Below the pieces are notes generated by a model that was not told the origin of the DNA, did no database searches, and saw only the letters and a list, made by a program, of their open reading frames with translations. DNA of 64,000 nucleotides from a bacterium (GTDB lineage: Bacteria > Patescibacteriota > Minisyncoccia > Phycocordibacterales > UBA9973): the NCBI GenBank assembly GCA_037143195.1, contig JBAWZD010000001.1:355733-419732 (forward strand), in the 5' to 3' direction. Shown piece after piece: positions 25,421 through 51,951 of this stretch. The position numbers and the translations under genes are program-made. Within the stretch, counting starts at the first letter, position 1. Every line of letters starts with the position of its first letter.

Positions 25421-25513
25421 ATCTTTGCATTTTAGCACTTTTTTTGTTAGTATTTTTGAGTTCGTGACGCGTGTCCAAATGTGCGCCGAAGCGTGCCCTT
25501 GAAAACCCAATAT

Positions 25514-25829
25514 TCCCCTGTAGCTCAGCGGTAGAGCAATCGACTGTCAGTAAGGCAGCTTCCTAGAGAAATCTAGGTCGAAAACGAGGTGAACTCGGTG
25601 AAGCCCACGAAAGCAATTTCTGGGGTAATACCGAGCCAAGCTCTGATATCAAATTCAGAGAAGGTGTAGAGACTATCCCCTTTGCGGGAGTACTCCGACA
25701 TCTGTCGGCGGAAGCGCCTCGGCCCTCACAGACCAGAAATGGTCAGAGGGTATGATATAGTCCACCCCTTTAAGTAATTTTAGGACAAGTGTAATCGATT
25801 GGTCGCAGGTTCGATCCCTGCCGGGGGAG
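25514..25829 (+). tRNA. tRNA-Asn(GUU) interrupted by a group I intron in the anticodon loop (exons 25514-25547 and 25792-25829)
   Basis: 5' exon tcccctg ta gctcagcggtagagc a atcga ctgt. 3' exon taa tcgat tggtc gcagg ttcgatc cctgc cggggga g. Spliced product is 72 nt with anticodon loop ctGTTaa, discriminator G, and acceptor tcccctg/cggggga. Confidence 0.8.
25548..25791 (+). ncRNA. group I self-splicing intron (~244 nt) inserted between tRNA-Asn positions 35 and 36
   Basis: 5' exon ends in U and the intron ends in G (omega-G). A candidate P1 forms between exon ctgt and intron ggcag near the intron 5' end. The conserved group I core elements are present: ttcagagaaggtgtagagactatcc (R/P7-like) and atgatatagtccac (S element GAUAUAGUCC, 25754-25763). 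Confidence 0.75.
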
Positions 25830-27533
25830 CAGAGTAGGACACACGTCCTCAAAAACCGCATTTCGTCCTGAAGTATCAAGTATATTTTTAGGTTCGAACT
25901 GCGGATTTTTTGTTTTTGCTTCAAGCAATCCTTTTTCGATCGTCTTATACAGAATTCCCTTTGTAATTATTACTTTTTTCTCGGTTAAAGTTAGGTTCGA
26001 ACCCAAACTAGAGAGTGCCTCCGTAATCTCTTCAAAATCGCCACTTTTGATAACTTCTTCCAATTCCGTGAGAATCTCGAGCTTATTGGTAACATCTCTC
26101 ATATCGAGCTTAAAGTCTTGTCCTACGCCCATTCTGGCGCGAACATTCGCCATTTCTCCCTTTATTTCTAACTCTTTTTCTCTAAAGCCCTCCTCGTCCG
26201 TAAAACCTCTTGTGTACGCATCAAGTAATCGTCCATGCTGTTCTTCGAGTCGCTTCATATCCTGATGCCAGCTGTTTTCGATCGTTTTGTCAGTCGTTTT
26301 CTGCTTATGTTCTAATATCTCTATGTTATCAATACACCACCTCGCAAGAGGTGGTGAGAGAGCAATTGTGCGGATATAATCATCTACAACCTGTTCACCA
26401 AGGACACTTTCGCTGAAGCTTTTCGCTGGACAATCAGGCACTTTCTTTTTTGTGCAGTGATAATAGATATAATTTAAAACTTTATTCTTGATACTACGTA
26501 AACCACTACCACATTTGGGACACGCACTTTTATTCGACACAGCAAACTTGTTTTTGCAATTACCACACATAATCTGCAGTTTCTTTTCAGCAGTAACTGA
26601 ACCACCGCAGTGTCCGCATTTTAAGAAATTCTTGTACGGAAATTCTTCTCTATGGGTGGATGATCGCGGATTACCTCTACGACGAATCAATTTGAGAATT
26701 TTGTAATGCTCTCGTTCTGTTATCATCCGTGGCACTAAGGGATTCACTTCATACCTGACAGTGTTCCCATCCGAATCTTTACCGAAGAAGAATCCTGCAT
26801 AGAATGGATCACTGAGCATCTTGTACGTCAGCGAAAGTTTCAATGGTTTACCTCCAAACTTCTTTCTCGCAACACTATGAAGCATAAAATCGTTCACAGC
26901 AACACGGTGCAATTCTCTGACTGAATATTTCTCTGTTAGAAACATTTGAAATAGTTTTTTGACGATTTCAAATCTTTCTGGATCAATCAACGTTTTTCGA
27001 AACCCCTTTTCTCCTCGATCATTCGCATATCCGATTTTTGCAATTCCGGGCGGATATCCCATCTGTCGCTTTTTCACAAGCCCGCGCTTAACGTTCTCGC
27101 CCTTGTTGTCGTTCTCCATCTTTGCCTGACTACAGAGCATCGTGAAGAAAAACTTGTCAGAGGGTGTATTTCGGAATATCTGTTGTTTGGTAATTATATA
27201 TTTTAATTTTTCCTCATCTAACAAATCAACCAGTCGCCCAGCATCTCCAGCATTTCTCGAAAGACGATCAGGGTGCCACGTGATAATTGCTTGCACGCTA
27301 CCTTTGTTAATATCTTTAACCATCTGCTCAAAGACAGGTCGTTGTCCTGATTTCTTTGCTGATTTTGCTTCGGTCAATTTTTCGCTTTCTTGTAATTCAA
27401 AACCATAGCTTATAGCAAGTTTATCTGTCTCAGCTTTTTGTGATTCTATCGACAATGCCTGACGTTCTTCTTGCTCGCTTGATTTGCGATTATATGAGCG
27501 TGCTTTAAGTCCTTTGAATTCACCTTTATCCAT
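25770..27533 (-). CDS. large serine recombinase (phage-integrase-type, resolvase/invertase catalytic domain plus recombinase and zinc-ribbon domains)
   Basis: N-terminus ARSYNRKSSEQEERQALSIESQ (catalytic Ser region), central recombinase domain, Cys cluster CGHCGGSV...CGNCKNKF...CPKCGSG, coiled-coil tail. The 3' end (…LPRQGSNLRPIDY) is encoded antisense to the tRNA-Asn T-arm and 3' exon. Confidence 0.85.
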   Translation of the reverse strand: MDKGEFKGLKARSYNRKSSEQEERQALSIESQKAETDKLAISYGFELQESEKLTEAKSAKKSGQRPVFEQMVKDINKGSVQAIITWHPDRLSRNAGDAGRLVDLLDEEKLKYIITKQQIFRNTPSDKFFFTMLCSQAKMENDNKGENVKRGLVKKRQMGYPPGIAKIGYANDRGEKGFRKTLIDPERFEIVKKLFQMFLTEKYSVRELHRVAVNDFMLHSVARKKFGGKPLKLSLTYKMLSDPFYAGFFFGKDSDGNTVRYEVNPLVPRMITEREHYKILKLIRRRGNPRSSTHREEFPYKNFLKCGHCGGSVTAEKKLQIMCGNCKNKFAVSNKSACPKCGSGLRSIKNKVLNYIYYHCTKKKVPDCPAKSFSESVLGEQVVDDYIRTIALSPPLARWCIDNIEILEHKQKTTDKTIENSWHQDMKRLEEQHGRLLDAYTRGFTDEEGFREKELEIKGEMANVRARMGVGQDFKLDMRDVTNKLEILTELEEVIKSGDFEEITEALSSLGSNLTLTEKKVIITKGILYKTIEKGLLEAKTKNPQFEPKNILDTSGRNAVFEDVCPTLLPRQGSNLRPIDYTCPKIT

Positions 27534-27591
27534 ATAGGTTACATAACAACACATACCAAGTAATGGCTTCGAAGTCCATACCCAGCGGTTA

Positions 27592-27759
27592 TTAGCGATT
27601 ATTTTTTATAATGCGCCTGCAGGCGTGTTTCTTTGCCAGCATTGCCATTCGTAGGAGTCGAGTCGCGAGCTCAACGGCTTCAGCATGCGACAACTGAACA
27701 CCATAATCCTGATCGATTATTTCGATAAGTCGGCTAAGTTGTTTCGCTGATAAGTCCAT
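27592..27759 (-). CDS. small helical protein immediately upstream of the recombinase (candidate Xis/RDF or regulator)
   Basis: MDLSAKQLSRLIEIIDQDYGVQLSHAEAVELATRLLRM.... A 14-bp inverted repeat (27761-27802) overlaps its start. Confidence 0.35.
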   Translation of the reverse strand: MDLSAKQLSRLIEIIDQDYGVQLSHAEAVELATRLLRMAMLAKKHACRRIIKNNR

Positions 27760-27896
27760 ACAAAATGGCCAACAGGACGGTGACTTCCTGCTGGCCATTT
27801 TGTATGACGTCACCGTATGGTCAACGCAAAACGCGCTACCACATTTCTATGGTGACGCGTTTTGATTCGATAATCTCCCTAGGTTTTAGAGGGTCT

Positions 27897-28655
27897 CTAA
27901 AACCTCTTATTTTTGAGTTTGTTGTACTCAGTGACAACCCGCTTAATTGTCGCAGTACTGACCTTAATCTTATCTTCATTACTTAAGATTTTTTGAATAA
28001 TCATTTCCTTTGTCTGATCCACGCACGTTGGATCAAGTTCTTTTCGGGATTTTCTAGACAGGGCGTAGATTTTTTCATCTCTTTCTTTGTTTTGAAGTGG
28101 ATTCATTTTTTCAGGTTTTTTCTGTGTTTGCTCCATGAGAGAATCCTGAATTCTTTCCCAGTTCTCCTTTATGAATTCTTGAACATCTTTGTAATTTGTC
28201 GCTTCAGGAAAAATAAAAAGTTTAACGAATGGTTGCTTCACCGCGACATAAAGATCATCTAGACATTGAAATTTAGAACCGTATTTGTACGCATCTGTAT
28301 CCAAGACAGCAATAGTGTTCTTTGTTTTTCGTTTGATTGCTCCATCTTCATGTTTTTTCATTTTTCTGGTTTCGGGATCACCGAAATAAAGATAGTCAAA
28401 TAAGAAATCTCTATCTAACAATGACACTCCGTACTTTTTTGCAAGATTTATTTGTTCAAGGAACAGATCTTCTGTCATATTTGCATCTAGTCCTTTTATC
28501 CAATGAGTTTTGAGTATCTCTTTCTCGAATCCAAATATTGGCATCTTAAATTTACGACGTATATTGGCTACATCTTCCCAAAAAACGTCACTGAAGGTTA
28601 TCTTATATAACTGATCCTCAAGCCGAGATACTGTCTCGGCGTCACCGCTATTCAT
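27897..28655 (-). CDS. hypothetical protein (island)
   Basis: 252 aa, AT-rich codon usage, no recognisable motif. Confidence 0.5.
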   Translation of the reverse strand: MNSGDAETVSRLEDQLYKITFSDVFWEDVANIRRKFKMPIFGFEKEILKTHWIKGLDANMTEDLFLEQINLAKKYGVSLLDRDFLFDYLYFGDPETRKMKKHEDGAIKRKTKNTIAVLDTDAYKYGSKFQCLDDLYVAVKQPFVKLFIFPEATNYKDVQEFIKENWERIQDSLMEQTQKKPEKMNPLQNKERDEKIYALSRKSRKELDPTCVDQTKEMIIQKILSNEDKIKVSTATIKRVVTEYNKLKNKRF

Positions 28656-28923
28656 ATACCCAAAGTGTACCAGAAAGTGCCGTTTATGCTATGATAATTT
28701 TGTACCGCAAGGTATTCGAACAATTTAATATGAAAGTAACCTAAACCATCGCTTCGGCGGTGGCATGGTGAAAAAATCCGACTAAGGAGCAAACAACCCA
28801 TCATATGGGGGCTTCCTTAGTCGGTCATACGTCGAAAGGCGTATGGATGTCGCAAGACATCACCCCTGTGATGGGCTTTTTGCTGTCCATTTAGGGGGTT
28901 TTATCAGACTTTAAAATAACATT

Positions 28924-29127
28924 ATGGAAATAGCTATAATCATTTTATTAGTGATCATTGTTTTTCAATTATCGGCAATGAATGGGAATTTAAGAATCAT
29001 CGATCAAACACTGGAGGGTATCAGAGAAATGTCTGAGATGAGTGCTGGCCAACGCTGGGAGCACGATTTAAAAATTGACGATCCTGAAGAATATAAACGC
29101 TACCAAAATAGGGATCGTTCTTATTAA
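28924..29127 (+). CDS. hypothetical small membrane-anchored protein (island)
   Basis: 67 aa, N-terminal TM helix MEIAIIILLVIIVFQLSA. Confidence 0.35.
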   Translation: MEIAIIILLVIIVFQLSAMNGNLRIIDQTLEGIREMSEMSAGQRWEHDLKIDDPEEYKRYQNRDRSY

Positions 29128-29158
29128 GTTAGATTGCCACAGAGATATCTAACTCAAT

Positions 29159-29488
29159 TTAATTTAGTTTGCTTTTCAAAAAAGCTATGCCATTTTGCTT
29201 GCCCTCAAGAGTTGTAGCGTACACATCATAATACACCTCTGTTGAAAGAACATCTTCTCCTTTTTTATTCCATTCTTCAACACGCGCATCAAGCCAAGTT
29301 TGTAAATCGTCCTCAGTAAAAGCTTTTTTAAAGTGATCAACGAAATATTCATATGAGGCGCAGATGTACACGCTAGAGTATTTGCTACCATGATCAGACA
29401 ATAAGCGCAGGATTGTCCAATATACATCCCTGTGAGTATCTTCTCTTAGTTTACTATTCTCGATTCTCATAATTTTATTATACCACAC
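29159..29488 (-). CDS. hypothetical protein, last gene of the R-M/defense operon
   Basis: 109 aa. Its start overlaps the stop of the DUF3800-like gene. Confidence 0.5.
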   Translation of the reverse strand: MWYNKIMRIENSKLREDTHRDVYWTILRLLSDHGSKYSSVYICASYEYFVDHFKKAFTEDDLQTWLDARVEEWNKKGEDVLSTEVYYDVYATTLEGKQNGIAFLKSKLN

Positions 29489-30290
29489 TGATTAGTCTTC
29501 TAAATTTTGCTTTTATTCTGTCGGTGCTTTCTTTTATTGAAGGTGATAATGTTCTTTTAGGGTAAACATTGAAACCTTTTCCTAAAATTGTATTAAGATC
29601 GGTATCATCTGATTTCCAAAAATTATCCTTTATGATGGGTAGAAAATTATACGCCATCTCCTTCATACTATACTGAATTGCACCTAATACTACGTCGTTA
29701 ATTTGATGAATCTGACTATATTCATTACTGATTTGAACGACAGGATAAATAATATAACGCAGATCAGAATAATCTATTCCATTAGCATAGGCAGAAAAAC
29801 AATGTCCGGTCATGTGGGAAGTAAACGCTTGCTCAAAGCAATCTGATATAACCATACCATTTTCTCTTATTGATTCGAGGTACTGATTAAATTTATGCAG
29901 ACAAACATTCATTCCATATTTTGTTGTCTGTAATTGGCGAGATTTATTTATTCTAAATTTAATAATCATATCCACGAAACTCATATCGTGATAGAAGTCA
30001 TGTGGTGCAAGATAAACAATAATTTTGCATTTTGACTTACTCACCATTTCTAGAATACGTTGTTTAAATTCTGCATGAATAGTAGCATCTAATATTCCTT
30101 CTCCATTCCAATTGTTATTTGTCCATTTTATTGGACGCTCATGTTTTATTCCATAATGACTTTTTAGTTTCAGTACCTTCTTACAAAGAGGGGCAAGTTC
30201 TTTTTCATCTACAATAATTCCACCATAAATGAAGAATTCGAATTTGTCGTCACTGGTTATATTGGACTCATCAGTAATAAGGAATTTCAT
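29478..30290 (-). CDS. DUF3800-like protein
   Basis: 270 aa. N-terminus MKFLITDESNITSDDKFEFFIYGGIIV matches the M..IDESG.. start characteristic of DUF3800. Sits 14 nt downstream of hsdR. Confidence 0.5.
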   Translation of the reverse strand: MKFLITDESNITSDDKFEFFIYGGIIVDEKELAPLCKKVLKLKSHYGIKHERPIKWTNNNWNGEGILDATIHAEFKQRILEMVSKSKCKIIVYLAPHDFYHDMSFVDMIIKFRINKSRQLQTTKYGMNVCLHKFNQYLESIRENGMVISDCFEQAFTSHMTGHCFSAYANGIDYSDLRYIIYPVVQISNEYSQIHQINDVVLGAIQYSMKEMAYNFLPIIKDNFWKSDDTDLNTILGKGFNVYPKRTLSPSIKESTDRIKAKFRRLISVV

Positions 30291-30304
30291 CTGTTAGTCA
30301 GTAT

Positions 30305-33271
30305 TTATTTATTCATCTTCTTGACCACATATTCGAACACTTTCTCTTGGACGAATTTCTTGAGTTCTGGACTCTGATCAAGTTTTTGATACAAGCTGAA
30401 GTGATTGTCGAGCACGCCAACAAGCTCGTCTTGAAAGAGCTGATCAAATTTCAATTTCGCAGAATCCTTGCTGTTATTTTCTACAGAACCTCTCAGCACT
30501 TCACTTGCAAGAAGTCGCTTACTCAAGTCATTGAGAATAACTCGATCACCATCAGTGAAATTCGTACCGTATCGTTCATTGATTTCTTTTATGATTTTTG
30601 ATAGCGCGTCTCGTTCATCTTCGGTTGAACCCTTACTATCTCCACTACCCATTGGATCGATAACTCCTTCAGTATTTTCAAGTTGAACATTCTTTTCTCC
30701 AGTCTTTTCAATTCTATATGTTGCCATATCTATCGCTTCAAGCACTTCATACGGAAGTGGATTTTCTCGTCTTGGTAATTTCTTAATCAGAAACTTCAGG
30801 AAGATATATAGCTTCTCAAGCTGAGGATCTTCAAATGTAACAATCTGCGAGATGAATGCGTATTTTTTGAGATAGTCGAATACAGTTGTTTTGAAACTTT
30901 CCATTTCTTCTTCAGTAAGATTTTCTTCTTGGATTCTTGAAACGACACCATCAATTATGTGATTGAGCTTATCCGGTGTTGCACCTGCGAAGTATTCATC
31001 TATAAACCCATTTACCTCGAAATCCGTGAAGAACTTGAATCCACGCACCTCACGCTCGAGATCGTGCAGTATATTCGGATTAGTAGCTTCTGAGAGCACT
31101 GTGGTGGTGTAATAGGGCTGAAAAGCGTCCTTAATCTCGTCTGTTTGATTCACAAAGTCGAGAACGAACGTATCGTCCTTTCCGTAAGTAGTTCGGTTCA
31201 ATCGTGAGAGTGTTTGAACTGCACCAACCCCTCCAAGCTTCTTATCGACATACATCACCGAAAGCAACGGCTGATCGAATCCTGTTTGATATTTTTCCGC
31301 TACGATCAAAAACTTATACTCGTCTTTTTTGAATTCTTCAGTAGTTTGAGTATCGGACACCTTGTTCATCTGCGCTTCAGTATATTCCAACTTCGTGTCG
31401 ACATCTTTTACGGTACCAGAAAAAGCCACTAATGCTTTATGGTGGTATCCTTTTTCCTTGAGATATTTATCAAACGCAATCTTATATCGAACAGCGTGGA
31501 GACGAGATTTTGTTACCACCATCGCCTTTGCCTTGCCACCGACAAGTGAAGCTATTTTTTCTTCAAAGTGCTCCACCATGATCGCTGTCTTTTTATCGAT
31601 AGCATGCTCATGGCGCTCCACGTATCCGATCATCAATCGCTGTGCTTTTTTCTTGTCGAATTCAGGATCGTCTTCAACTTTTTTCAGAAGCCCGAAGTAT
31701 GTTTCGTATGTCGTGTAATTCTTCAAAACATCAAGAATGAATTTCTCCTCAATAGCTTGTTTCATTGAATACAGAGAGAACGGTATATATTTTCCAGTGA
31801 GTGGGTCTTCAGCTCCAAAGAGTTCAAGTGTCTTTTGTTTTGGAGTTGCAGTGAACGCAAAGAAGCTCAAGTTTGGTGAAGCGACCTTTCGCGCTTTCAT
31901 GCGCTCAATGATTTGATCTTCCACTGTCTTGAATACTTTTTCTTCTTTCTCCGTTTCTTTTTCTGCTTCGTCCAAAGTAAGTACTTGTCGCAAATCGGCG
32001 GCAGATTCTCCGGATTGCGAAGAATGAGCTTCGTCAATGATGACTGCGAATTTTTTGCCCTCCACTTTTTCTATTGCATCAACAATCACAGGGAATTTCT
32101 GCAGAGTCGTCGTAATAATTCTTACTCCTGCTTCCAATGATTCCTTGAGTTCTTTTCCTCCATTCTCTATGTGTTTTACAAGCCCTGTCACCTGACTGAA
32201 GCTCTTTACCGTGTCTGAAAGCTGTTTATCGAGCACACGGCGGTCGGTAACGACAATAACGCCATCAAACACGTTCTTGCTTGCAATATCGTGTAATTCG
32301 GCAAGACGATGCGCTACCCATGCAATGGTATTACTTTTTCCTGATCCAGCGCTGTGTTGAATAAGATAGTTTTTCCCTGAGCCATTCTCCTGAGCATCTA
32401 ACACGATTTTTCTCACTGTCTCCAATTGATGATAACGAGGGAAGATTATTTTTTCTTCCTTACTTTTCTTTCCGTTTTTGTCTTCTTTTTCTTCGGTGAT
32501 ATCTTGTATGAAATTCCCGAGTAAATCAAACACACTGTCTTTTGACCAGACATCTTCCCAGAGATAGTGGGTTTTGTATTTTCCTTTTGGTGCATCAGGA
32601 TTGCCAGACGAACCATTGTTGCCTTTGTTGAACGGCAAGAAATATGTCGTAAGACCAGTGAGTCGAGTCGTCATATATGCCTGTTCAGTGTCTACTGCAA
32701 AGTGAGTCAGGCATCGCTTGAAGGATAGGAGTTTCTCTTTTTGATCACGATCCGTTCTGTATTGAGAAATAGCATTGATAACATTCTGTCCTGTAAATTG
32801 ATTTTTGAGTTCCACAGTAAAAACAGGGAGTCCGTTCACGAAGATAACCATGTCTAGAGAGTTCTCGTTCTTTGCGCTGTATTTGACCTGACGCATAACA
32901 CTCAATATATTTCCAGCGTAATCAGCGAGTGTTTCCGGATTTTTGTCATTTTCTGGCTTGAAGTGCGCAAGATGAAAACGCACCCCCCGATCGGTAACCC
33001 CATCACGCAGAACACTCAACAAGCCACGAGAAAGAAGCTCCTCATCAATTCTAGCCAAGAATTTACTCTGTGCTTCTCCTCCGTACTGCTCAACAATCTT
33101 CTGCCATGCTTCATTCTGAGTATTTTGAATAAACTCCAAAACCAGCTCTGTATCCATACAGAGAGTTTTATCGTAGGAAGAATTTAATCTCGAACGATAT
33201 TTGTGGAGCTCAGCAAGTTCCTTCTCGATGAATTCTTCAAATCCTTTTTCTTTTGTGTTTGTTTTTATCAT
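30305..33271 (-). CDS. hsdR: Type I restriction enzyme R subunit
   Basis: 988 aa. N-terminal PD-(D/E)xK nuclease (DMVIFVNGLPVFTVELK). SF2 helicase motifs: motif I IQHSAGSGKS, DEAH box FAVIIDEAHSSQ. C-terminal helical domain. Confidence 0.93.
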   Translation of the reverse strand: MIKTNTKEKGFEEFIEKELAELHKYRSRLNSSYDKTLCMDTELVLEFIQNTQNEAWQKIVEQYGGEAQSKFLARIDEELLSRGLLSVLRDGVTDRGVRFHLAHFKPENDKNPETLADYAGNILSVMRQVKYSAKNENSLDMVIFVNGLPVFTVELKNQFTGQNVINAISQYRTDRDQKEKLLSFKRCLTHFAVDTEQAYMTTRLTGLTTYFLPFNKGNNGSSGNPDAPKGKYKTHYLWEDVWSKDSVFDLLGNFIQDITEEKEDKNGKKSKEEKIIFPRYHQLETVRKIVLDAQENGSGKNYLIQHSAGSGKSNTIAWVAHRLAELHDIASKNVFDGVIVVTDRRVLDKQLSDTVKSFSQVTGLVKHIENGGKELKESLEAGVRIITTTLQKFPVIVDAIEKVEGKKFAVIIDEAHSSQSGESAADLRQVLTLDEAEKETEKEEKVFKTVEDQIIERMKARKVASPNLSFFAFTATPKQKTLELFGAEDPLTGKYIPFSLYSMKQAIEEKFILDVLKNYTTYETYFGLLKKVEDDPEFDKKKAQRLMIGYVERHEHAIDKKTAIMVEHFEEKIASLVGGKAKAMVVTKSRLHAVRYKIAFDKYLKEKGYHHKALVAFSGTVKDVDTKLEYTEAQMNKVSDTQTTEEFKKDEYKFLIVAEKYQTGFDQPLLSVMYVDKKLGGVGAVQTLSRLNRTTYGKDDTFVLDFVNQTDEIKDAFQPYYTTTVLSEATNPNILHDLEREVRGFKFFTDFEVNGFIDEYFAGATPDKLNHIIDGVVSRIQEENLTEEEMESFKTTVFDYLKKYAFISQIVTFEDPQLEKLYIFLKFLIKKLPRRENPLPYEVLEAIDMATYRIEKTGEKNVQLENTEGVIDPMGSGDSKGSTEDERDALSKIIKEINERYGTNFTDGDRVILNDLSKRLLASEVLRGSVENNSKDSAKLKFDQLFQDELVGVLDNHFSLYQKLDQSPELKKFVQEKVFEYVVKKMNK

Positions 33272-33275
33272 AAAT

Positions 33276-35150
33276 TTATTCTTTCAATTTAGCATGCACC
33301 GACAACACAAAATTATAGAAGGTTGTATATTTATCTTGTATGATTTGCTTGGTGTTTGTTTTTTTAACGACATCAGACAATACTTTGTTTGTAATCAAAG
33401 ATTTTAATTCTTTTAGATCGTCATTCGGGCTTATTTTTCTTAGTGATTTTAGTTTATCTTTTACTTCATCTAAAACAGCTTTCGTTGAATCAATTTGTAT
33501 TATTACAGAAAAAAGTTCGTTTACTGATTCAATAATAATTTCAGATGGTAGTAAATCTTCTATTGTAAAGTAAGCTTTACTTTGAGCTGAAAAATCATTC
33601 AATTCAAAGATATTATTTTTCAAAGAAGAGTTATCCTTAATCATGTTATTTTTTATACTCTTACCTTTTTGATCTGAGTCAAGAATAAAAAAACCTTTAA
33701 CTAGTTTATTATCGAAGAATTTTGCATATGTAGGCATTTTGTCAGCACTCTCAGAAGATATAGAACCTATATCTAAAGGTTTTATGTCAGATTTAAATTT
33801 TGATGTAAAAACATCAAACAAATCCTTATCGGTTCTACCTTCAAAAACTAACATATATGGTTTTATGTGTTCGTACACTGATGTTCCGAGTGCTTCATAT
33901 AATACTTCTTCTTGATATGGATTTTCAGGATCAATAGAATACGCACTTGTAACAGAACCTTTCGATACACTTCCACATTTCTCAACTCTTACATGTCGAT
34001 TTAAACTTTTTCGATCAACCATATAGATTGAATGCGTTGAAACAAAAACTAAATTGTTTTGCGCGATATTTAGTATCTCATCTCTAAGATATCTTACTCC
34101 GCTTGGGTGCAAGTGAACTTCGGGTTCGTCCAAGAGAATAACTTGGTTTTTTAAAATTGATTTTTTGTTTTCAACAGAAAGGTTAAGTAATATTGATACG
34201 AGTTGTCGAAATCCATCACTACGTTGAGACATTGCATATTTAGGTGTTGGATCATCCTTATCTTCTACGTAAACCGAACATGATAAATCTTGCTCGATTT
34301 GTATTCTAATCGAGATATTGTGTTCCGACCAAATCAAATTTATATGCTCAGTGATTGCTCTGGAGAGATCTTCCTGTAACTCCATTCTATTTTCTGCACT
34401 TTGTGATGCAAGAGAAACTGCGTAAGGGATATCATCTCTTTCAGCTATTTTAAAGATATTTCGAAGTGGAATTGACTTTGATTGATCTGTTGCAAATTCA
34501 TTCAGATTTACAGGTTTATTTATTAGATACTTGTCGTCATTAGGAGCCCAAAAAATTATTTTTGGAATACCTAAATCAAAAATTGTAGATTTTTCTGATA
34601 AAATCTTCTCTAAAATTTCCTTGTTTAAGATTCTTGCACCCGCACCAACAAGTGTGACGATACTTTCTTCTGTAACTGGTTCTTCACCCTGATATATTTC
34701 TTTGATTAACTTAATAGCGTTTTGTCCATCAATGAAATAGAGCCCGAGAGTTTTTATGTCATCAATTTCTATAAAAAATTGATCTATTCGCTTGTTCTCG
34801 AAATCAAAAACAACCACGCTTTCTATATTTTTAATCTTTATTTCTTTTGCCAAATCAAGAGGGATACCATTTTTACTCAAGTGGTCAACATAAAATTGCC
34901 AATTTTGAATTCCTAAGTTTAAACGAACTGATACTGATTCTTTTTTCTTCTGTGCCGATTTAAGACAATCAGTATTGTAGTTAATTGTTTCTCCTTTTGA
35001 TATAAGATTTATCGCTTTAAGTATATTACTTTTACCCGTCTCGTTAACACCCAAGAGTATATAGCAACTCTTATTGGCAATCGAATCAGTAGTCAAAAAA
35101 ATCTCTTTAATACTTCGGTAGTTATTTATTTTTATACTGTTTATTTTCAT
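33276..35150 (-). CDS. OLD-family ATP-dependent endonuclease (ABC-type ATPase fused to a Toprim/DUF4435-like nuclease; PARIS/Gabija-like), embedded between hsdS and hsdR
   Basis: MKINSIKINNYRSIKE... Walker A LLGVNETGKSNILKAI, signature-like SDGFRQLVSILL, Walker B/H-loop VILLDEPEVHLHP, VFVSTHS. C-terminal Toprim-like motifs MLVFEGRTDKDLF and GFFILDSDQKG. Confidence 0.75.
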   Translation of the reverse strand: MKINSIKINNYRSIKEIFLTTDSIANKSCYILLGVNETGKSNILKAINLISKGETINYNTDCLKSAQKKKESVSVRLNLGIQNWQFYVDHLSKNGIPLDLAKEIKIKNIESVVVFDFENKRIDQFFIEIDDIKTLGLYFIDGQNAIKLIKEIYQGEEPVTEESIVTLVGAGARILNKEILEKILSEKSTIFDLGIPKIIFWAPNDDKYLINKPVNLNEFATDQSKSIPLRNIFKIAERDDIPYAVSLASQSAENRMELQEDLSRAITEHINLIWSEHNISIRIQIEQDLSCSVYVEDKDDPTPKYAMSQRSDGFRQLVSILLNLSVENKKSILKNQVILLDEPEVHLHPSGVRYLRDEILNIAQNNLVFVSTHSIYMVDRKSLNRHVRVEKCGSVSKGSVTSAYSIDPENPYQEEVLYEALGTSVYEHIKPYMLVFEGRTDKDLFDVFTSKFKSDIKPLDIGSISSESADKMPTYAKFFDNKLVKGFFILDSDQKGKSIKNNMIKDNSSLKNNIFELNDFSAQSKAYFTIEDLLPSEIIIESVNELFSVIIQIDSTKAVLDEVKDKLKSLRKISPNDDLKELKSLITNKVLSDVVKKTNTKQIIQDKYTTFYNFVLSVHAKLKE

Positions 35151-36391
35151 ATTTTTACTTTTCCTGTTACGACATTCGATATTAACGACGACTTAAACTC
35201 TTTTAAAATTTCAATTGATTGTTCTGTCTTGCGGATAGCAGTATCAAAAAGCTTTGTTTTTTCGTTTAGTTTATTTACGATTTCTTTTTGTTTTTCTAAA
35301 TTAGGAAGTGAAAATTCATAGTTTCTAACGAATGAAGTAGTAACTCGTTTTTGTCCTGCTGTCCCGCGCATTTCAACTTCGCCTGATTTTCTGAATTTAT
35401 CAGAAAAAATTAGATAGTATAGATAATCAGCCAGTATCGAATCTTTCGGACGCATAACCATGAATTCGGTTGTGCCAAAACCAAACCCATTCTTTAATCC
35501 TTTCATTACTCCGGCTTTTCCGTTTTCGTAGCATGGAGTAATCTTGGCTAAAACAACATCTCCATTTCGAAAATAGGTAAACCCATCTTTTACCTCTTTG
35601 TATTTTTTTTCTTGTAGTTCAAGTTTTCCGTTCTCAGATATAGCTTCCATTGGTACAAACGAAACAGTATCTTCTAAGTCAGTGTCTGAAACAACTTTTT
35701 TTGTGGGATTTACTTGTACATGATTTTTAATTTTTACAAAATCACCTTTGATATCCATAATCATATGATTAACCAAAGCGGTGCGCCTTTCTTTTAGCAA
35801 TTCAATTTGTATTTCTTTTTTTTCTATAATTTGATCGATAAACGATGTTTTTTCATCAAGATAATTTGCAATTTTAGTTTGTTCTTTTGATTCAGGAACC
35901 GTAATTAAGATTCGTTTCATTTCGCTCTCACGAGTAGTCCAGAGATCGTCAACAATGCCTCGCCCCCAGCGATAAAACTCTTCAGAGAATAGATTACTTC
36001 TAAACAAATAATGAAAATACTTTGAGTCAAAAGTCGGGTTTCTTTTTCGGAGAACGTTGTAAACAAGAGAAACTCCTCCCTCATATTCTGACATTCCAAC
36101 AGCACCTTTTCTATCTGATCGCCCATTGATAGCTATATCACCAATCTTTACATGTTTTCGCAAGCTACCCTCGGCAACCTTGGCAGCATTTTCTATTTGC
36201 TTCTTAATACCACCATAGGTGACTGACAGAGGTTCATAATTTTCTTCAGTTACCTTATCATGGGGGAAATCAAATACTGATACAACTTTTTGCGATTCCC
36301 AACCTTTAGGAATTTTACCCAACCACTCAACACCCGAATCTTTGTATTCAGGATATTTATCGTATTTTTTTGTGAGTTTTAGTGTTTGCAT
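35147..36391 (-). CDS. hsdS: Type I restriction-modification specificity subunit (two target-recognition domains)
   Basis: 414 aa, duplicated TRD architecture with conserved central and C-terminal coiled-coil spacers. The 4-nt ATGA overlap with the downstream OLD gene indicates translational coupling. Confidence 0.9.
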   Translation of the reverse strand: MQTLKLTKKYDKYPEYKDSGVEWLGKIPKGWESQKVVSVFDFPHDKVTEENYEPLSVTYGGIKKQIENAAKVAEGSLRKHVKIGDIAINGRSDRKGAVGMSEYEGGVSLVYNVLRKRNPTFDSKYFHYLFRSNLFSEEFYRWGRGIVDDLWTTRESEMKRILITVPESKEQTKIANYLDEKTSFIDQIIEKKEIQIELLKERRTALVNHMIMDIKGDFVKIKNHVQVNPTKKVVSDTDLEDTVSFVPMEAISENGKLELQEKKYKEVKDGFTYFRNGDVVLAKITPCYENGKAGVMKGLKNGFGFGTTEFMVMRPKDSILADYLYYLIFSDKFRKSGEVEMRGTAGQKRVTTSFVRNYEFSLPNLEKQKEIVNKLNEKTKLFDTAIRKTEQSIEILKEFKSSLISNVVTGKVKI

Positions 36392-36392
36392 A

Positions 36393-36635
36393 TTAATTAA
36401 TTTTTAACAACCAAAGAACAATTCCAGAGATTAATGCAATCGCAACACCAATTAATATCTGCCCCATAACTGATTTAGGTAGTAATGATTGAGCTGTTTT
36501 AAAAATTGATCTTATTATTTTTGTTCTCGTTCCTTCATTTTTAATTGCATTATTAAAACCAATAAATTCACAGTCCTCAATTTTTGTGTCAGAAGCTTCT
36601 TTTGTTATATGAATACCAATAGTTTTATTTTCCAT
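36393..36635 (-). CDS. small protein with a C-terminal TM helix, between hsdM and hsdS
   Basis: About 80 aa from MENKTIGIHITKEASDTKIEDCEF... to ...ILIGVAIALISGIVLWLLKIN. Its ATG overlaps the hsdM stop by a few nt. Confidence 0.45.
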   Translation of the reverse strand: MENKTIGIHITKEASDTKIEDCEFIGFNNAIKNEGTRTKIIRSIFKTAQSLLPKSVMGQILIGVAIALISGIVLWLLKIN

Positions 36636-36639
36636 ATAT

Positions 36640-46371: not shown

Positions 46372-47511
46372 TTAATCAAATTTCATTCCGAGGTGTAAAC
46401 CACGCTCGCGAACGACCTGCTCGACACAATCTGCTGACCACGCTCCAAGTGTTGGAATGAGGAGCAAATTCTCTCGTGTCCGCTGAACTAAATCAAACAA
46501 ATTTTGAATACTCGCTTTTTTCAACAGACGAGATACTCGGTCAGGAAGGTTTAGATTTTCAAGGGTCACGCTCATTAATCTAGTTTTTTCAGTTTCGATA
46601 CTCCGTGCCTCTTTGGAGACTGACAACTCAAGATTTTTGATTGTATCCAGCTCATTTTGAATCGTAATTAACTTGTTCCACAACTCAACATAGTCAGAGA
46701 CTGTCTTACAAATGAAATAATGTTCATTGTTCAACTCATTCGATAAGCGCGAAATTGCATTCCTTTGGGTTAGCTCAAAAAACGCGTCGGTCACATCGTA
46801 CTTTTCCATCAAATCGGATTTGCTTTCGTTAGAAAGCTCATACTTGGCCTGAACGAATTCCTTCTCGCGCCAATCGAAGTTACCGATTCGAATTTTGAGA
46901 TACTCGATGAACCTTTCATCAAAATACCGAGATTCTCTCGTCTTAGGCGACAGAAGCATTTCGCATGTCGATGATGTAAGCAGGCTACGAATAGTCCCTA
47001 TTTTCAGATCTTCTGGAAAAGGAATTTCTTCATTGTGCATTTTTTTTAATACCTCATCGAGGTAGTGTCCTGCTGTATTTTGATCTTTTACTTCAGGATA
47101 CAATTTGTTAATCAGCGCTTTCCACCCTTCACAAATGCCGGGTGAAAACATGTTGCCTCCAGACATGTTTTTGTAAAAAATTGCTCCAGCAATAAAGTCT
47201 TCCCATCTGATTAAATTGAGGTGCTTAAACAGATGAGGTTTCAAGTCAATAATCGCGGGAGATTTCATCACAAGTGAACACTCGAGATCGTCAGCTACAA
47301 GCCACGCATATACCTTCAACAGGTATAACTTGTTTTCGGGGACAGCCTCCTTCTTCAGATCTACGTTTTTGGACTCCTCAGGGAGGTTGCTATTAACGCA
47401 ACTCTCAGTAATTTTATACAGTTCCGCTATGAGTTTAAGCGGGATGCTATTCTTGTACAGAATCGCGATGTTCCTCTTCATTTCTGGGGTGACTACTTTG
47501 TGTGTGGACAT
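46372..47511 (-). CDS. protein with a C-terminal RNA polymerase alpha-subunit CTD-like (HhH) domain
   Basis: C-terminus LENLNLPDRVSRLLKKASIQNLFDLVQRTRENLLLIPTLGAWSADCVEQVVRERGLHLGM matches the RpoA alpha-CTD consensus (LEELELSVRSANCLKRAGI.TLGDL..).. Start placed at MSTHKVV... (ATG at 47509-47511). The track's extension runs through an inverted repeat. Confidence 0.6.
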   Translation of the reverse strand: MSTHKVVTPEMKRNIAILYKNSIPLKLIAELYKITESCVNSNLPEESKNVDLKKEAVPENKLYLLKVYAWLVADDLECSLVMKSPAIIDLKPHLFKHLNLIRWEDFIAGAIFYKNMSGGNMFSPGICEGWKALINKLYPEVKDQNTAGHYLDEVLKKMHNEEIPFPEDLKIGTIRSLLTSSTCEMLLSPKTRESRYFDERFIEYLKIRIGNFDWREKEFVQAKYELSNESKSDLMEKYDVTDAFFELTQRNAISRLSNELNNEHYFICKTVSDYVELWNKLITIQNELDTIKNLELSVSKEARSIETEKTRLMSVTLENLNLPDRVSRLLKKASIQNLFDLVQRTRENLLLIPTLGAWSADCVEQVVRERGLHLGMKFD

Positions 47512-47714
47512 ATATTTTGATTTTAACGGTTGCCACAAAAGATTGGTGACGCTTCTCTGGCAACCGTTAAAACCATATTTTTCAATGAAATAATCAACCA
47601 TGAATACTACACATATATTCACAAATGTCAAATTATCCACGTTTCAAAGTTGGCCAATTATGGCTCAACGATGTTACGTTAATTGTGATCAACGTTCCTG
47701 CTATTACACATGTG

Positions 47715-48020
47715 TTAGCGATGCGGACATCCAGCCCAACAACACGGACGGCGCTTCCCTTTCAAAAGATTTTCGCTCATGATTCGCATTCGGCGATTGC
47801 GTGTTTCAAGTTTCTTTGCAGAAGTAATCCAACAAATCCATTCGTTACGCGCGAGCGGAGTGAGGTCTTTCCATAGTGTCGATATATCTTGTTTTGATGC
47901 GAGTATTTGCTGCACATCAAGCGGGACTCGATGCACCATCTTCGCGACGACTTGTTTCTGTGTCATAGGTTCTATATTACCAAAATCTCGTCTCGAGCGC
48001 CCTGTGTATGATTGTTCCAT
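47715..48020 (-). CDS. YdeI/OmpD-associated (OmdA) family protein
   Basis: C-terminal signature LTPLARNEWICWITSAKKLETRNRRMRIMSENLLKGKRR (W..WI.SAKK.ETR..R). Confidence 0.55.
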   Translation of the reverse strand: MEQSYTGRSRRDFGNIEPMTQKQVVAKMVHRVPLDVQQILASKQDISTLWKDLTPLARNEWICWITSAKKLETRNRRMRIMSENLLKGKRRPCCWAGCPHR

Positions 48021-48128
48021 TTGACATTCTCCAGAAACTGCTTAATCTGTCAATAATACCTTCCTCTTTCATTATTTTGGTGACCACAGAAGATTTCCGC
48101 CTTTTGTGGTCACCAAAATAATATACGT

Positions 48129-48449
48129 ATGTGGCACTTCATTAAATCACTGTTCGTTTTCGAAAATGTGAACCATTTCATATGGTTTTTAGGATCAATA
48201 ACGATCCTCGTTTATCTCGTGGCAAATTCACTCTTGTACAAAAGGAGTGCGTTGCTAAAATTTCTCACGCAGATTTTCCTTATTCTTGCATTGATAGCTG
48301 CATTTTGTGTTTTTATTCTTTATCCGAATCTAAAAATACAAGAGCATACCTTCACCATACATTGTGTTTGGTACAATACATTATTGGGAGTCGTAACATT
48401 CTTGTTTCGACGAAAAATAGAGAAAATAAATCATAAAAAGCCAACCTGA
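48129..48449 (+). CDS. hypothetical membrane protein
   Basis: 106 aa, three hydrophobic helices. Terminator hairpin at 48434-48464 (aaaagccaac ctgaaa gttggcttttt). Confidence 0.45.
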   Translation: MWHFIKSLFVFENVNHFIWFLGSITILVYLVANSLLYKRSALLKFLTQIFLILALIAAFCVFILYPNLKIQEHTFTIHCVWYNTLLGVVTFLFRRKIEKINHKKPT

Positions 48450-48479
48450 AAGTTGGCTTTTTATCTGGGTTACGCTTTT

Positions 48480-49212: not shown

Positions 49213-51951
49213 TTATTTCGTCCATTTCGCCATAAGCATTACAAAATCCAGCACATCGACCTTCCCGTCACTATTAAAATCTGCAATATTACTTGTACCG
49301 GTACCTCCCCAATGTGCCATCAATGTGACGAAGTCGAGAATGTCTACCTTACAATCGTGGTTGGTGTCTACTTTTCCAAGCGAACACGTGTTGCCACCGC
49401 CGCCACCTGAACCTCCTCCGCCTCCGCCACCACCTCCACCTCCTCCACCACCGCCTCCGCCACTAGTGGTTGAGCAAGGGCTCGTGGTAAAGGTCATATC
49501 ACTTCCTGTACCGTTGCCGTACGAATTGACGGCAAGTGCTTGATAGTGATATGTCGTCGCACATGTGAGACTTGGGAGATCAAGATGAAATACTCCGCTC
49601 GTAAAGGTGCCTGTCGCGATGACCTGACCGCCATATGCACTCGTCGTTCCAAATGAGAATCCTCGTCCGGTTACCGTACTTGAGCCCGTGTAATCGATAA
49701 TTCCGTTAATCGTTGCGCTTGTCTGTGTGATTGAAGTCGCAGCTGATGTCGTTACATATGGCACAGGCTGGCGTGTCCAGATGAATCCAGGAGAATCATC
49801 ACCTGCAACAATCCACAAACCGTCTCTCGACATTCCAAGCGAAGCCCAGAACGCAGAACCGGCCGATGTTTGTGGAACCCATGTTGTTCCGCTATCAGTC
49901 GAAATCAAAATGAAATGACCATCAGCATCCGGACCACCTTCGGCAAGCACAATTACTTTGCCATCGTCAGAGACGCGAGCGTTGCTCCAATCTCCAGTAC
50001 CAGCACTTGTCATTTTGGTCCATGTCACGCCACCATCAGTTGAACTATACGCGTACCCGTGCGCTTCGACAGCGACAATATATGTTCCATCACTTGAAGC
50101 GGATACGTTTTTCCAAGAATGTGAACCGAGATCGGTAAAGTCTGCCCATGTGAGTCCACCATCGAGCGATTGATGAATGAGCCCGTTTGAGTCACTTACA
50201 ATAATGTCTGTTCCATTCTGAGCGACGGCGAGCGCACTCCACGGACCCGAACCAAGGACTGTAGCATCCGTCCATGTCATTCCTCCGTTATGTGAAATTG
50301 AAAGATATCCTGCGAACGTTGTGTATAGAATAGTCTGGCCATCAGTACTAAGGCCGAGCGCCTGACTCAATTGTGATCCAAGAGTCGGAAGCGCGCTCCA
50401 TGTTGCTCCTGTATCAAATGAAATATATACCGAGCCAGTTACTTTGTCTGAAGCAAGCATTCGAGTGCCAGAACCTGAGATTGCGACACTGTTCCAAAAA
50501 TGCGTACCGAGATTTGGGACTTGTGTCCATGTCACATCACCGTCGGTTGAGATATACAAATTTTCATTTGGATAATCGGTTGCAATCGTTGTTTGACCAT
50601 CATCGGAGGTCGCGATATTTGACCAGAAGTGTGCACCCGAACCGACTTGACGAATCCACGCCGAACCAGAGTACACAGTGGTACATGGAAGCGTCTGCAC
50701 CGTCGCATCACTACCATACGAAACACCATCAGCATTTGAAGCGAACGCACGATAGTGGTAGAGAGTATTACATGCGAGTCCGGTATGCACATCAGCGCCG
50801 GTAAATGACGGCGAGTTTCCTTGTGTAAAAGGAAGCGTGAGTCCAATCGTAACGTTCGTACCATATGCAGTTGTGAGACCATATTCGGCTCCAACACTTT
50901 CGAGGAACGAATCACCGTAATCAGGAACTGATCCATTCAATTGAGCTCCAAATTCACGAATCGTTCCTGTAGTCAAAGTCGTGACGACAGGTGGTCGTCC
51001 GTTTGTATAAATATATCCACCCAAATCTACAGCAGAAAATGGTGCACCGTTTGTCGTTGAAGCCACTGCTTGCCACATACGATTGCCCGCGACTGTATCA
51101 TGCACCCATGTAGATCCACCGTCATATGATTCGTACAATCCTCCTGCTCCGTTATCGGCTGCAATGAGCGTCATGCCATCCGCACTACTTGCGACAGATG
51201 ACCAACTTCGCACACCCGAACTGTAATCAGGATTCCATGTCGTGCCACTGTCTGTTGAGGTATACAAATAGTCACCGACAGCACCAGCCGTCATATGTGT
51301 ACCGTCTGCATTGATTGAAATACTAAGCCATGAACGATTCCCAGCGCTTGTAGCTTCAGTCCATGTTGCACCAGAGTCGTTTGAAATCATTATTGATCCG
51401 ATTGCGCTCGCAGCTGCAAGTGTCGTTCCGCTACTTGAAGATGCTACTACTTGCCACAGAGAAACCCCGAGTGATGTCTGGGTCGTCCATGTCGCTCCAC
51501 TGTCTGTTGAGAGATATACATTTCCGTTTGATTCAGCTGCGATCAATTGCGAACCACTCGCATTTGAGGCAATTGAGGCCCATACGTGTGAACCGAGACT
51601 CGTTTGCTCAGTCCATGTCACACCACCATCAGTTGAAGTAAAGAGTGATCCACCCGCAACGATAGCTGCGAGCTTTTGGCCATCAGCACTTCCGGTGACA
51701 GAGTTCCATTCTTGCGGACCTGTTGCAGTTTGTTGCGTCCAATGCAAACCACGATCAGTCGACGTATAAACGTATCCAGCGCCTGATTCATTGTCTACTG
51801 CGGCGAGTCTTGTGCCATCAGCGCTACTCGTAATCGAAAGCCAGTGATGCTGACCAGAATCCGTTCGCTCAATCCATGTATGGGCTGACGCGACGTGAGT
51901 AACTACAAAAAATAAAACTGCGAAAAATGGAACTATAGCTATTTTTTTCAT
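49213..51951 (-). CDS. secreted BNR/Asp-box repeat protein (>15 S-x-D-x-G-x-T-W units) with poly-Gly linker and C-terminal dockerin-like domain
   Basis: Signal peptide. Repeated STDGGVTW / STDSGATW / SNDSGATW units. GGGGGGGGGGGGGGGGGSGGGGG linker. C-terminus DTNHDCKVDILDFVTLMAHW...DFNSDGKVDVLDFVMLMAKW, a duplicated dockerin type I calcium-binding motif. Confidence 0.75.
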   Translation of the reverse strand: MKKIAIVPFFAVLFFVVTHVASAHTWIERTDSGQHHWLSITSSADGTRLAAVDNESGAGYVYTSTDRGLHWTQQTATGPQEWNSVTGSADGQKLAAIVAGGSLFTSTDGGVTWTEQTSLGSHVWASIASNASGSQLIAAESNGNVYLSTDSGATWTTQTSLGVSLWQVVASSSSGTTLAAASAIGSIMISNDSGATWTEATSAGNRSWLSISINADGTHMTAGAVGDYLYTSTDSGTTWNPDYSSGVRSWSSVASSADGMTLIAADNGAGGLYESYDGGSTWVHDTVAGNRMWQAVASTTNGAPFSAVDLGGYIYTNGRPPVVTTLTTGTIREFGAQLNGSVPDYGDSFLESVGAEYGLTTAYGTNVTIGLTLPFTQGNSPSFTGADVHTGLACNTLYHYRAFASNADGVSYGSDATVQTLPCTTVYSGSAWIRQVGSGAHFWSNIATSDDGQTTIATDYPNENLYISTDGDVTWTQVPNLGTHFWNSVAISGSGTRMLASDKVTGSVYISFDTGATWSALPTLGSQLSQALGLSTDGQTILYTTFAGYLSISHNGGMTWTDATVLGSGPWSALAVAQNGTDIIVSDSNGLIHQSLDGGLTWADFTDLGSHSWKNVSASSDGTYIVAVEAHGYAYSSTDGGVTWTKMTSAGTGDWSNARVSDDGKVIVLAEGGPDADGHFILISTDSGTTWVPQTSAGSAFWASLGMSRDGLWIVAGDDSPGFIWTRQPVPYVTTSAATSITQTSATINGIIDYTGSSTVTGRGFSFGTTSAYGGQVIATGTFTSGVFHLDLPSLTCATTYHYQALAVNSYGNGTGSDMTFTTSPCSTTSGGGGGGGGGGGGGGGGGSGGGGGNTCSLGKVDTNHDCKVDILDFVTLMAHWGGTGTSNIADFNSDGKVDVLDFVMLMAKWTK

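Follow-up and report, generated by a model that had tools for sequence, protein, structure and literature searches.

What brought a low-GC block of DNA to the 3′ end of a tRNA-Asn gene in a member of the Patescibacteria (candidate phyla radiation, CPR), and where does that block end? The question is raised by a 64-kb stretch of genomic DNA, hereafter the window, whose positions are used throughout unless another locus is named; homologues of its proteins are labelled Minisyncoccia, Paceibacterota or Parcubacteria. An earlier interpretation made from the letters alone (the sequence-only reading) had described an AT-rich island of 22.7 kb that starts at a large serine recombinase (LSR) gene overlapping the tRNA-Asn 3′ exon and runs to about 48,470. 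Our analysis makes it probable that tRNA-Asn(GTT) has instead received two insertions in tandem at its 3′ end, both the work of an LSR clade specific to Patescibacteria. Element 1 (25,833–39,950) is apparently intact and would comprise the LSR, a 55-amino-acid (aa) protein, a 252-aa helix-turn-helix (HTH) protein, the LOOT RNA and a defence cargo, and segment 2 (39,951–43,738) would be what is left, without a recombinase, of a similar element that arrived earlier. Element 1 measures 14,118 bp from core to core, and segment 2 is 3.8 kb long. Coordinates of individual features are collected in Table 1.

The LSR open reading frame (ORF) spans 25770–27554 on the minus strand, and its likely start is the second methionine, M8, at 27533; an exact look-up of the 594-aa form found no record, the recorded form being the 587 aa that begin at M8. 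A resolvase catalytic domain is followed by a recombinase domain, a zinc ribbon and an extra C-terminal region of about 180 aa that contains motifs conserved at the nucleotide level. Matches to the Pfam families Resolvase (PF00239, E 1.4e-24) and Zn_ribbon_recom (PF13408, 3.8e-8) lie above cut-off, the match to the Recombinase domain (PF07508) is weak and below cut-off (E 0.006) and is a precomputed match in many homologues, and a PHROG integrase family is matched at 2.3e-59. The protein is only remotely similar to XisF, CcrB, SPbeta SprA and TP901-1 Int; among NCBIfam models XisF scores best, with 102 bits where the cut-off is 375, and PDB matches have E values of about 1e-6. Residues S18, R16, R65, R90 and R93 are invariant in an alignment of 36 sequences, and with these conserved catalytic residues and a full-length ORF the LSR is intact. 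As the sequence-only reading had noticed, the gene at the left edge runs into the tRNA: on the opposite strand, its final 21 codons cover the tRNA-Asn 3′ exon (25792–25829) and the final 22 nucleotides (nt) of the intron. The protein ends …CPTLL-PRQGSNLRPIDYTCPKIT before its stop codon, and these last codons are antisense to acceptor stem, T-arm, anticodon stem and intron end.

This overlap recurs across the family. A protein search with the LSR returned 2,491 homologues at E <= 1e-10, and 80 loci came from a scan in which each GTDB species was represented by one genome (these and the related genomes below carry L numbers). The conserved part of the homologues stops at …V(R/C)PTLL. Many run on past LL as QDSNLRPID, QGSNLGP, DSNQRPT or alike, which are antisense translations of the T-arm, and most others terminate two residues past LL; about three quarters of the top 120 homologues have one or the other ending, and about 21 of the 120 have a conserved extension, LLRMLNDVRT…. 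At the DNA level, 31 of the 80 loci have an ARAGORN-predicted tRNA that lies antisense to the LSR gene and overlaps its 3′ end (16 Asn, 5 Gln, 4 Ser, 2 Gly, 2 Trp, 1 Lys and 1 His); nine more loci have overlapping tRNAs with introns of 220–569 nt, and at a further four the contig ends within the antisense tRNA, so that at least 44 of the 80 LSR genes overlap an antisense tRNA 3′ end. Both the tRNA 3′ end and the Leu-Leu codons could be located in 17 loci, and in 15 of these their register is identical. The other loci are mostly distant non-CPR homologues in which the extension is kept and no tRNA is present. Because of these overlaps and this fixed register we conclude that the Patescibacteria LSR clade targets tRNA genes, contrary to the doubt that the sequence-only reading had raised about LSRs, and that it appears to carry the phage-type attachment site (attP) inside its own 3′ end. 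No account of this CPR clade was present in the literature searched.

Tandem LSR genes are present in L004 and L026, the tRNA-distal copy in L004 having a full-length extension. Such an order would follow if a later element entered at the tRNA and so came to separate it from an older one. An interpretation of the L004 arrangement as an "attR relic" was dropped, since the supposed relic is a complete second LSR gene and the array is a tandem one.

Related genomes were collected through the contexts of Fmt homologues. Alignment of the window with two of them, L083 and L084 (about 88% nt identity; Fmt 93% identical), stops at 25830/25831 and does not resume, and the more distant L085–L089 also lack the island. 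These relatives support a horizontally acquired island, with the LSR at its left edge, that abuts the tRNA-Asn 3′ end; the sequence-only reading had named shared ancestral genes as the alternative to a mobile island, and vertical descent is not what the relatives display. Positions 11895–12870 of L083, the closest relative, hold other DNA immediately after the same tRNA-Asn, including a gene fragment with DpnII/MTES_1575 restriction-endonuclease domains and no adjacent LSR, and the site is therefore a hotspot with varied occupants.

The junction sequences place the limits of the inserted DNA (a slash marks the junction). Past the tRNA, L084 reads …GGGGGAGCA/AATGTTTGAC and L087 reads …GGGGGAGCA/AATTTGACGAAAT…, with the same AAT(G)TTTGAC flank, and the next 105 nt of L087 (13304–13408) match window 43758–43860 (74.5%, E 5e-11). 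The left junction of the window, attL, reads …GGGGGAGCAG/AGTAGGAC…, and the junction at 43,733–43,738 reads …CGCGAGCAG/TAATTTGAC…. Relative to L087, 17.9 kb has thus been inserted, ending at 43,738, with the shared core GAGCAG. This hexamer is present at three junctions, 25827, 39945 and 43733. The sequence-only reading had seen no direct repeat of the tRNA 3′ end, and for long repeats that holds: there is no repeat longer than GAGCAG, no displaced tRNA 3′ fragment at the far end, and no copy of the tRNA end or the attL region, direct or inverted, beyond chance level in 40–52 kb. The absence of a long repeat is as serine-integrase chemistry predicts; the 6-bp duplication had escaped notice.

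Which of the two downstream cores is the partner of attL? The integrated-state LSR lacks the C-terminal extension of its family, and a motif search found that extension on the minus strand at 39,958–39,905, as (F)STLL-RMLDDVRTCILRG and a stop codon. The plus strand there is GTTCGAAC-N15-GAGCAG, and an exact GTTCGAAC-N15-GAGCA is present nowhere else in the 64 kb; the counterpart in the tRNA is GTTCGATC-N10-GAGCAG. Joining the 39945 arm to the LSR gives a 582-aa ORF that ends …CPTLLRMLDDVRTCILRG before the stop, near family members P0056 and P0084 (…PTLLRMLNDVRT…), and the reconstructed frame completes the LSR to the family consensus, …PTLL/RMLDDVRTCILRG and stop. On the outer side of this junction, 39,951–40,030 hold a hairpin with a T-run and then AGGTTCGGAC, which resembles an LSR gene end and is read as a scar. 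A separate scar of this type is present in L085, where an LSR end of about 70 bp (11660–11726; a perfect hairpin and GGTTCGAA) follows an intron-less tRNA-Asn with no LSR there; its score was reached in 0 of 500 shuffles, and it is clearer than the scar in the window. Because 39945 is the better att partner, because such a scar lies outside it and because tandem arrays are found elsewhere, we divide the inserted DNA into a 14.1-kb element and a 3.8-kb remnant.

It is unlikely, in our estimation, that 25,833–43,738 is one composite 17.9-kb element, mobile as a unit through a degenerate P-like arm at 43.72 kb, in which the 39,945 site is a relic of accretion. The L087 empty site does fit the 43,738 junction and not 39,950, in our reading of the sequences the core persists at 43,733 and the arm to its left has a 5/8 match (TTTTGTAC) precisely where the motif belongs, as well as AGGA and ACCGC in common with the P′ arm, and GC is 0.378 in both segments. 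However, the 43,733 arm would give the LSR a tail, …LLARRWAFCTARS and stop, that fits the family consensus poorly, whereas with the 39,945 arm the tail comes close to perfect consensus and the motif is exact, and an LSR-end scar lies on the outer side of 39,950, where the border between two elements would leave one. Movement of a 17.9-kb unit would be recognised by the alternative junction pair CCTCCTCGCGAGCAGAGTAGGACAC and GGGGGAGCAGTAATTTGAC. The same degenerate arm contains one half (43690–43718) of a 29-nt inverted repeat, 83% complementary and beginning ATTTTGTACCGC…, whose other half (28697–28725) lies just upstream of LOOT.

An island that continues to about 48,470 appears very improbable. 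Its GC was said to be about 33% against 48–50% in the flanks; we measured 0.38 for 25770–48470 and 0.46 on both sides, with values of 0.31–0.34 confined to 33–37 kb. Low GC does continue past 43,738 (0.386–0.396 up to about 48.4 kb), and 43739–47714 (GC 0.386) holds five orphan ORFs outside the mapped insertion, those at 43,881–47,640 having no homologues in the relatives examined. Yet L087 DNA from right after the tRNA aligns to 43,758–43,860, no att-like site was found in 43739–47714, and near 48.4 kb there is no core, no P-type site and no repeat of the attL region. Moreover, orthologues of the YdeI/OmdA gene (47715–48020) adjoin the same tRNA in L085, L086 and L087, which indicates that this gene is host DNA outside the element. 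The product of one of the five orphan ORFs (46372–47640), 422 aa long, has the C-terminal domain of RNA polymerase alpha (alpha-CTD), and this ORF too sits outside the element. The gene list of the sequence-only reading was accurate as to presence (small ORF with an inverted repeat, Type I restriction-modification (R-M) operon, repeat protein, alpha-CTD and YdeI/OmdA genes), but the last two do not belong to the mobile DNA. Beyond them, also in host DNA right of the island, a 912-aa BNR/Asp-box repeat protein (49213–51951) has a C-terminal dockerin and a poly-Gly tract, the latter encoded by a tandem repeat at 49393–49461.

A recombination scheme can be proposed for the tandem-insertion reading. 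In serine integrases the motif contacted by the zinc-ribbon domain lies 5 bp closer to the centre in attB (bp 11–19) than in attP (16–24) (Rutherford et al. 2013, PMC3783163). The T-loop sequence TCGAWC stands 10 nt from the core and its P-arm copy 15 nt, and because 10 against 15 nt fits this canonical offset, the T-loop may serve as the attB half-site motif and the two copies as the zinc-ribbon-domain motifs of the B and P half-sites. These spacings and the 6-bp core fit the serine-integrase att pattern on the left arms; the right arms are without such a motif. On this scheme attP would lie within the last LSR codons and attB would consist of the last tRNA bases and the DNA immediately downstream, with crossover in GAGCAG, that is, in the Leu-Leu codons. 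Because of that position, integration would leave the tRNA whole and would exchange only the last 13 residues of the LSR, from …LL-RMLDDVRTCILRG to …LL-PRQGSNLRPIDYTCPKIT. Excision would be a reaction of attL with attR1, probably aided by the 55-aa protein. It is predicted to produce an attP reading …CCAGCATGCGGAGCAG/AGTAGGACACACG… (junction sequence GTTCGAACATCGTCCAGCATGCGGAGCAGAGTAGGACACACGTCC) and a restored attB with scar reading …GGGGGAGCAG/CGTAGAAAAAAC… (junction sequence CCTGCCGGGGGAGCAGCGTAGAAAAAACAAGCG).

Several observations weigh against this reading. No excised circle or restored attB was found, exact scans of metagenome contigs for the attP junction and the P arm were empty, and none of the short contigs with full-length LSRs (L168, L169 and others) is circular. 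The empty site is known from relatives that are 70–89% identical and not from a conspecific strain; exact look-ups for a conspecific empty site returned nothing for the 717-aa protein of segment 2 and only the source contig for a 122-aa protein. The P′ arm has no T-loop-like motif at positions 16–24, and the att sites are asymmetric, with no symmetry between left and right half-sites. The position of element 1 beside an LSR scar implies an attL-like target, which canonical serine integrases do not use. If the inserted DNA is one composite element, the P-type site at 39,945 may be a leftover within it, and the low GC of 43.74–47.7 kb is unexplained by the island model.

The lack of an excised form, which the sequence-only reading had paired with the lack of an att duplication as evidence against an island, and the absence of the family extension from the integrated LSR might also suggest a fixed, immobile relic that is vertically inherited, its LSR kept for another role or decaying. 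The GAGCAG duplication is present, however, the LSR has its whole length and its catalytic residues, neither attL nor attR1 is damaged, relatives at about 88% nt identity lack the island, and L083 has another occupant at the site; we regard such a relic as highly improbable. The tandem-insertion reading, in which the remnant would have been inserted before element 1 and element 1 may still be mobile, is the one we retain.

The end of the LSR gene is under more constraint than its protein would require. A palindromic T-loop-like motif, GGTTCGAACC in the context (G)GTTCGAACC(T), recurs there in three reading frames, as GSNL, FEP and VRT codons, at a fixed distance from the crossover, in about 48 loci. 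At GSNL (GGT-TCG-AAC-CTn) all 48 of 48 loci use TCG for serine, a codon whose background is 15%; FEP (G-TTC-GAA-CCT) follows GSNL at a distance of 105 nt in 46 of 48 loci, and its distance from the tRNA end is 61 nt in 32 of 41; and VRT (GTT-CGA-ACC-T) is located in the C-terminal extension. Since wobble bases are fixed, selection acts on the nucleotide sequence itself. After integration the tRNA T-loop adds a further copy. The two distal copies lie too far from the crossover for a canonical attP, and extrusion of a hairpin that would bring the FEP motif into half-site range was rejected because the distances do not fit. It is conceivable, though we hold the idea tentatively and think it more doubtful than not, that the site architecture of this clade is more elaborate than that of any characterised serine integrase, with the GGTTCGAACC copies as accessory recombinase or regulator sites that would set directionality together with the tail swap, and with LOOT as a dedicated component.

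Within the first 45 nt past the tRNA, many elements (L004 at about 11630–11665, L005, L007, L011, L012, L014 and others) have, antisense to the LSR codons TE(A/V)F(A/T)SV, a strong hairpin with a T-run that would be transcribed along with the tRNA; it is weak in the window. Judged by eye, its stems vary in sequence between loci yet keep their pairing, and the embedded hairpin is probably a tRNA terminator supplied by the element.

The target tRNA gene is itself split by an intron, probably of group I. ARAGORN calls the whole gene at 25514–25830 when introns are allowed; at 25.5 kb, default ARAGORN and the Rfam tRNA model report no tRNA. Against RF00028 the intron reaches 49.7 bits (E 1.3e-11), slightly below the gathering score of 50, and related tRNA-Asn introns score 59–85 bits. 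Orthologues in L085 and L087 are intron-less and their alignments run from 25547 straight to 25792, which confirms the splice sites and the Asn anticodon. By comparison with the window, the intron is present in L083, L084 and L089 and absent from L085–L088; because the first three have the intron and not the island, it is host DNA and separate from the island. Presence of this anticodon-loop intron in tRNA-Asn(GTT) thus varies among close Patescibacteria that have an identical gene neighbourhood. The nine further LSR-adjacent tRNA genes with introns of 220–569 nt are in L003, L005, L009, L012, L014, L017, L058, L060 and L064. Default tRNA finders miss such genes, and ARAGORN's amino-acid calls for intron-bearing tRNAs shift with the placement of the intron.

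Upstream of the LSR, element 1 has a small module that recurs in its relatives. The 55-aa protein is a candidate recombination directionality factor (RDF) or regulator by its position; its family has no significant Pfam match and belongs to no recognised RDF family. The family of the 252-aa protein has 72 cluster representatives, and its structural model (pLDDT 87.5) resembles HTH DNA-binding domains only. Like the window, 11 further loci have LOOT upstream of their LSR; together these are all members of the close tRNA-Asn subclade with enough upstream DNA, and LOOT was not found in nine more distant loci. It stands about 70–110 nt from the start of a 165–330 aa ORF, in either orientation, in the eight elements checked, and looks to have its own promoter and terminator. 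LOOT RNA and the 55-aa protein are conserved core parts of these elements, LOOT being constant in this subclade. No function for LOOT was published in the literature searched (the supplement of Weinberg et al. 2017 lay outside that search).

The remaining genes of element 1 all share the orientation of the LSR and, by their family matches, form a cluster of anti-phage defence genes. PADLOC recognises REase_I, MTase_I (9e-251), Specificity_I (3e-93) and Old (3.5e-26) in the operon. Cargo varies among related elements and is mostly R-M or defence: L005 has an Eco57I-type methylase and an XhoI-type endonuclease, with a homologous pair in L011, and L012 and L014 have Type I R-M genes. Pfam, PHROG and PADLOC scans of the window proteins revealed no capsid, tail, terminase, relaxase or type IV secretion genes. 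A scan of viral contigs likewise gave no sign of a phage, returning only distant LSR relatives that match mainly over residues 14–383 in the N-terminal part. The two orphan genes of segment 2 have no family matches and no counterparts in the relatives.

The island arrangement is not peculiar to one assembly: contigs from Logan and ENA and an NCBI metagenome-assembled genome (MAG), three independent assemblies, all have it, the 252-aa protein being on the MAG contig. Two Logan contigs of one run, L001 and L002, share about 30 nt inside the tRNA 5′ exon (window 25509–25538), where both end; this overlap is an assembly-graph branch whose cause may be strain variation or a tRNA sequence common to other genomes.

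Table 1. Features of the tRNA-Asn locus, in window order; sites in other loci are in the last line.
Feature	Position	Strand	Remarks
tRNA-Asn(GTT) 5′ exon	25514–25547	+	ARAGORN with intron option; splice giving GTT anticodon agrees with intron-less L085/L087
Probable group I intron	25548–25791	+	anticodon loop, 244 nt, host DNA; Rfam RF00028
LSR, 587 aa in integrated state	25770–27533	-	tail PRQGSNLRPIDYTCPKIT translated from antisense tRNA and intron
tRNA-Asn 3′ exon, proposed B arm of attL	25792–25829	+	T-loop GGTTCGATC at 25808–25816, 10 nt from core
attL core GAGCAG (proposed)	25827–25832		encodes LSR Leu-Leu on minus strand; L083/L084 similarity ends at 25830/25831
Proposed P′ side of attL, within LSR coding end	25833–25899		ends in palindromic AGGTTCGAAC at 25890–25899 (FEP codons)
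Second GGTTCGAACC copy, GSNL codons	25994–26003		conserved at DNA level
55-aa ORF directly upstream of LSR	27592–27759	-	same position in 13 of 15 related loci
21-bp inverted repeat overlapping 55-aa ORF start, operator-like	27757–27806		repeat search (pair I8), 95% complementary
252-aa protein adjoining LOOT	27897–28655	-	predicted helix-turn-helix DNA binder
LOOT RNA (Rfam RF03000)	28738–28861	+	93.1 bits; gathering score 46.4
DUF3800 protein	29478–30290	-	weak PADLOC match to PDC-M04A
Type I R-M operon	30305–38394	-	hsdR 30305–33271; OLD-family ATPase-TOPRIM nuclease 33276–35150; hsdS 35147–36391; hsdM 36640–38394
Fic-domain protein, SoFic type	38409–39545	-	PADLOC SoFic 2.1e-116; NCBIfam
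Hairpin, 20-bp stem	39849–39901		after stop codon of reconstructed LSR ORF; repeat search (pair I13)
Proposed P arm of attR1	39905–39944	-	encodes RMLDDVRTCILRG and stop in frame with core; GTTCGAAC at 39922–39929, 15 nt from core
attR1 core GAGCAG, proposed right end of 14.1-kb element	39945–39950		sole exact P-type site in window
Probable scar of older LSR 3′ end	39951–40030		hairpin and T-run, then AGGTTCGGAC at 40017–40026; comparable scar in L085
Remnant segment, two orphan genes	40265–43569	-	287 aa (40265–41128); 717-aa repeat protein (41416–43569)
attR2 core GAGCAG (proposed)	43733–43738		end of all DNA inserted relative to L087; degenerate P-like arm on left
Host DNA following tRNA-Asn in L087 empty site	43739–43860	+	TAATTTGAC… and conserved hairpin
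LOOT sites in other loci	L004 8142–8259; L005 7741–7856; L008 8347–8471; L009 3798–3917; L010 7337–7455; L011 8245–8360; L012 7654–7769; L013 6315–6439; L014 6825–6951; L023 7387–7513; L034 7883–8004		

Serine integrases are in wide use as genome-engineering tools and are described in the literature searched as avoiding tRNA genes. Mageeney et al. 2020 (PMC7192596) wrote that serine integrases had never been reported to use tRNA genes; they found 14 computational cases among 297 and called for proof. A tRNA-targeting clade that follows a T-loop half-site logic would, if the scheme above is true, widen the target range of these enzymes and could yield orthogonal integrases. The locus also shows very small Patescibacteria genomes exchanging R-M and defence genes at one hotspot, gives the LOOT RNA a genomic context, and lends itself to tests of an integrase that would differ in protein sequence between its integrated and free states.

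Compared with the known serine integrases (phiC31, Bxb1, A118/LI, TP901-1, SPbeta SprA, SCCmec CcrAB and XisF), the present LSR has the same domain order; its proposed att sites would likewise be short with few shared crossover bases, and on the left arms the putative binding motif would lie 5 bp further out in attP than in attB. It differs from them in targeting tRNA 3′ ends, in apparently having attP in its own coding end and in the extra C-terminal region of about 180 aa. Islander or P4-type islands of tyrosine integrases resemble this locus in the edge integrase by an intact tRNA, the reuse of sites, tandems, remnants and accessory or defence cargo; here, in contrast, the enzyme is a serine recombinase, the repeat is only 6 bp and the crossover would fall at the very 3′ end of the tRNA. 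An attP inside the integrase's own gene is found in IntP of the Myxococcus phage Mx8, which targets a tRNA, and in SSV1-type archaeal integrases, and integration alters or splits the reading frame; those enzymes are tyrosine recombinases, whereas here an LSR would swap only its last 13 residues. Among the tycheposons of Prochlorococcus, 27 of 937 encode an LSR instead of a tyrosine recombinase (bioRxiv 10.1101/2020.12.28.424599). These and the present element are both tRNA-associated cargo islands, in hosts of different phyla. We know of no link between tycheposons and LOOT RNA. A defence island at a tRNA gene is ordinary; the class of enzyme, an attP apparently within the LSR gene, tRNA targeting across a whole clade and the association with LOOT, taken together, set this one apart.

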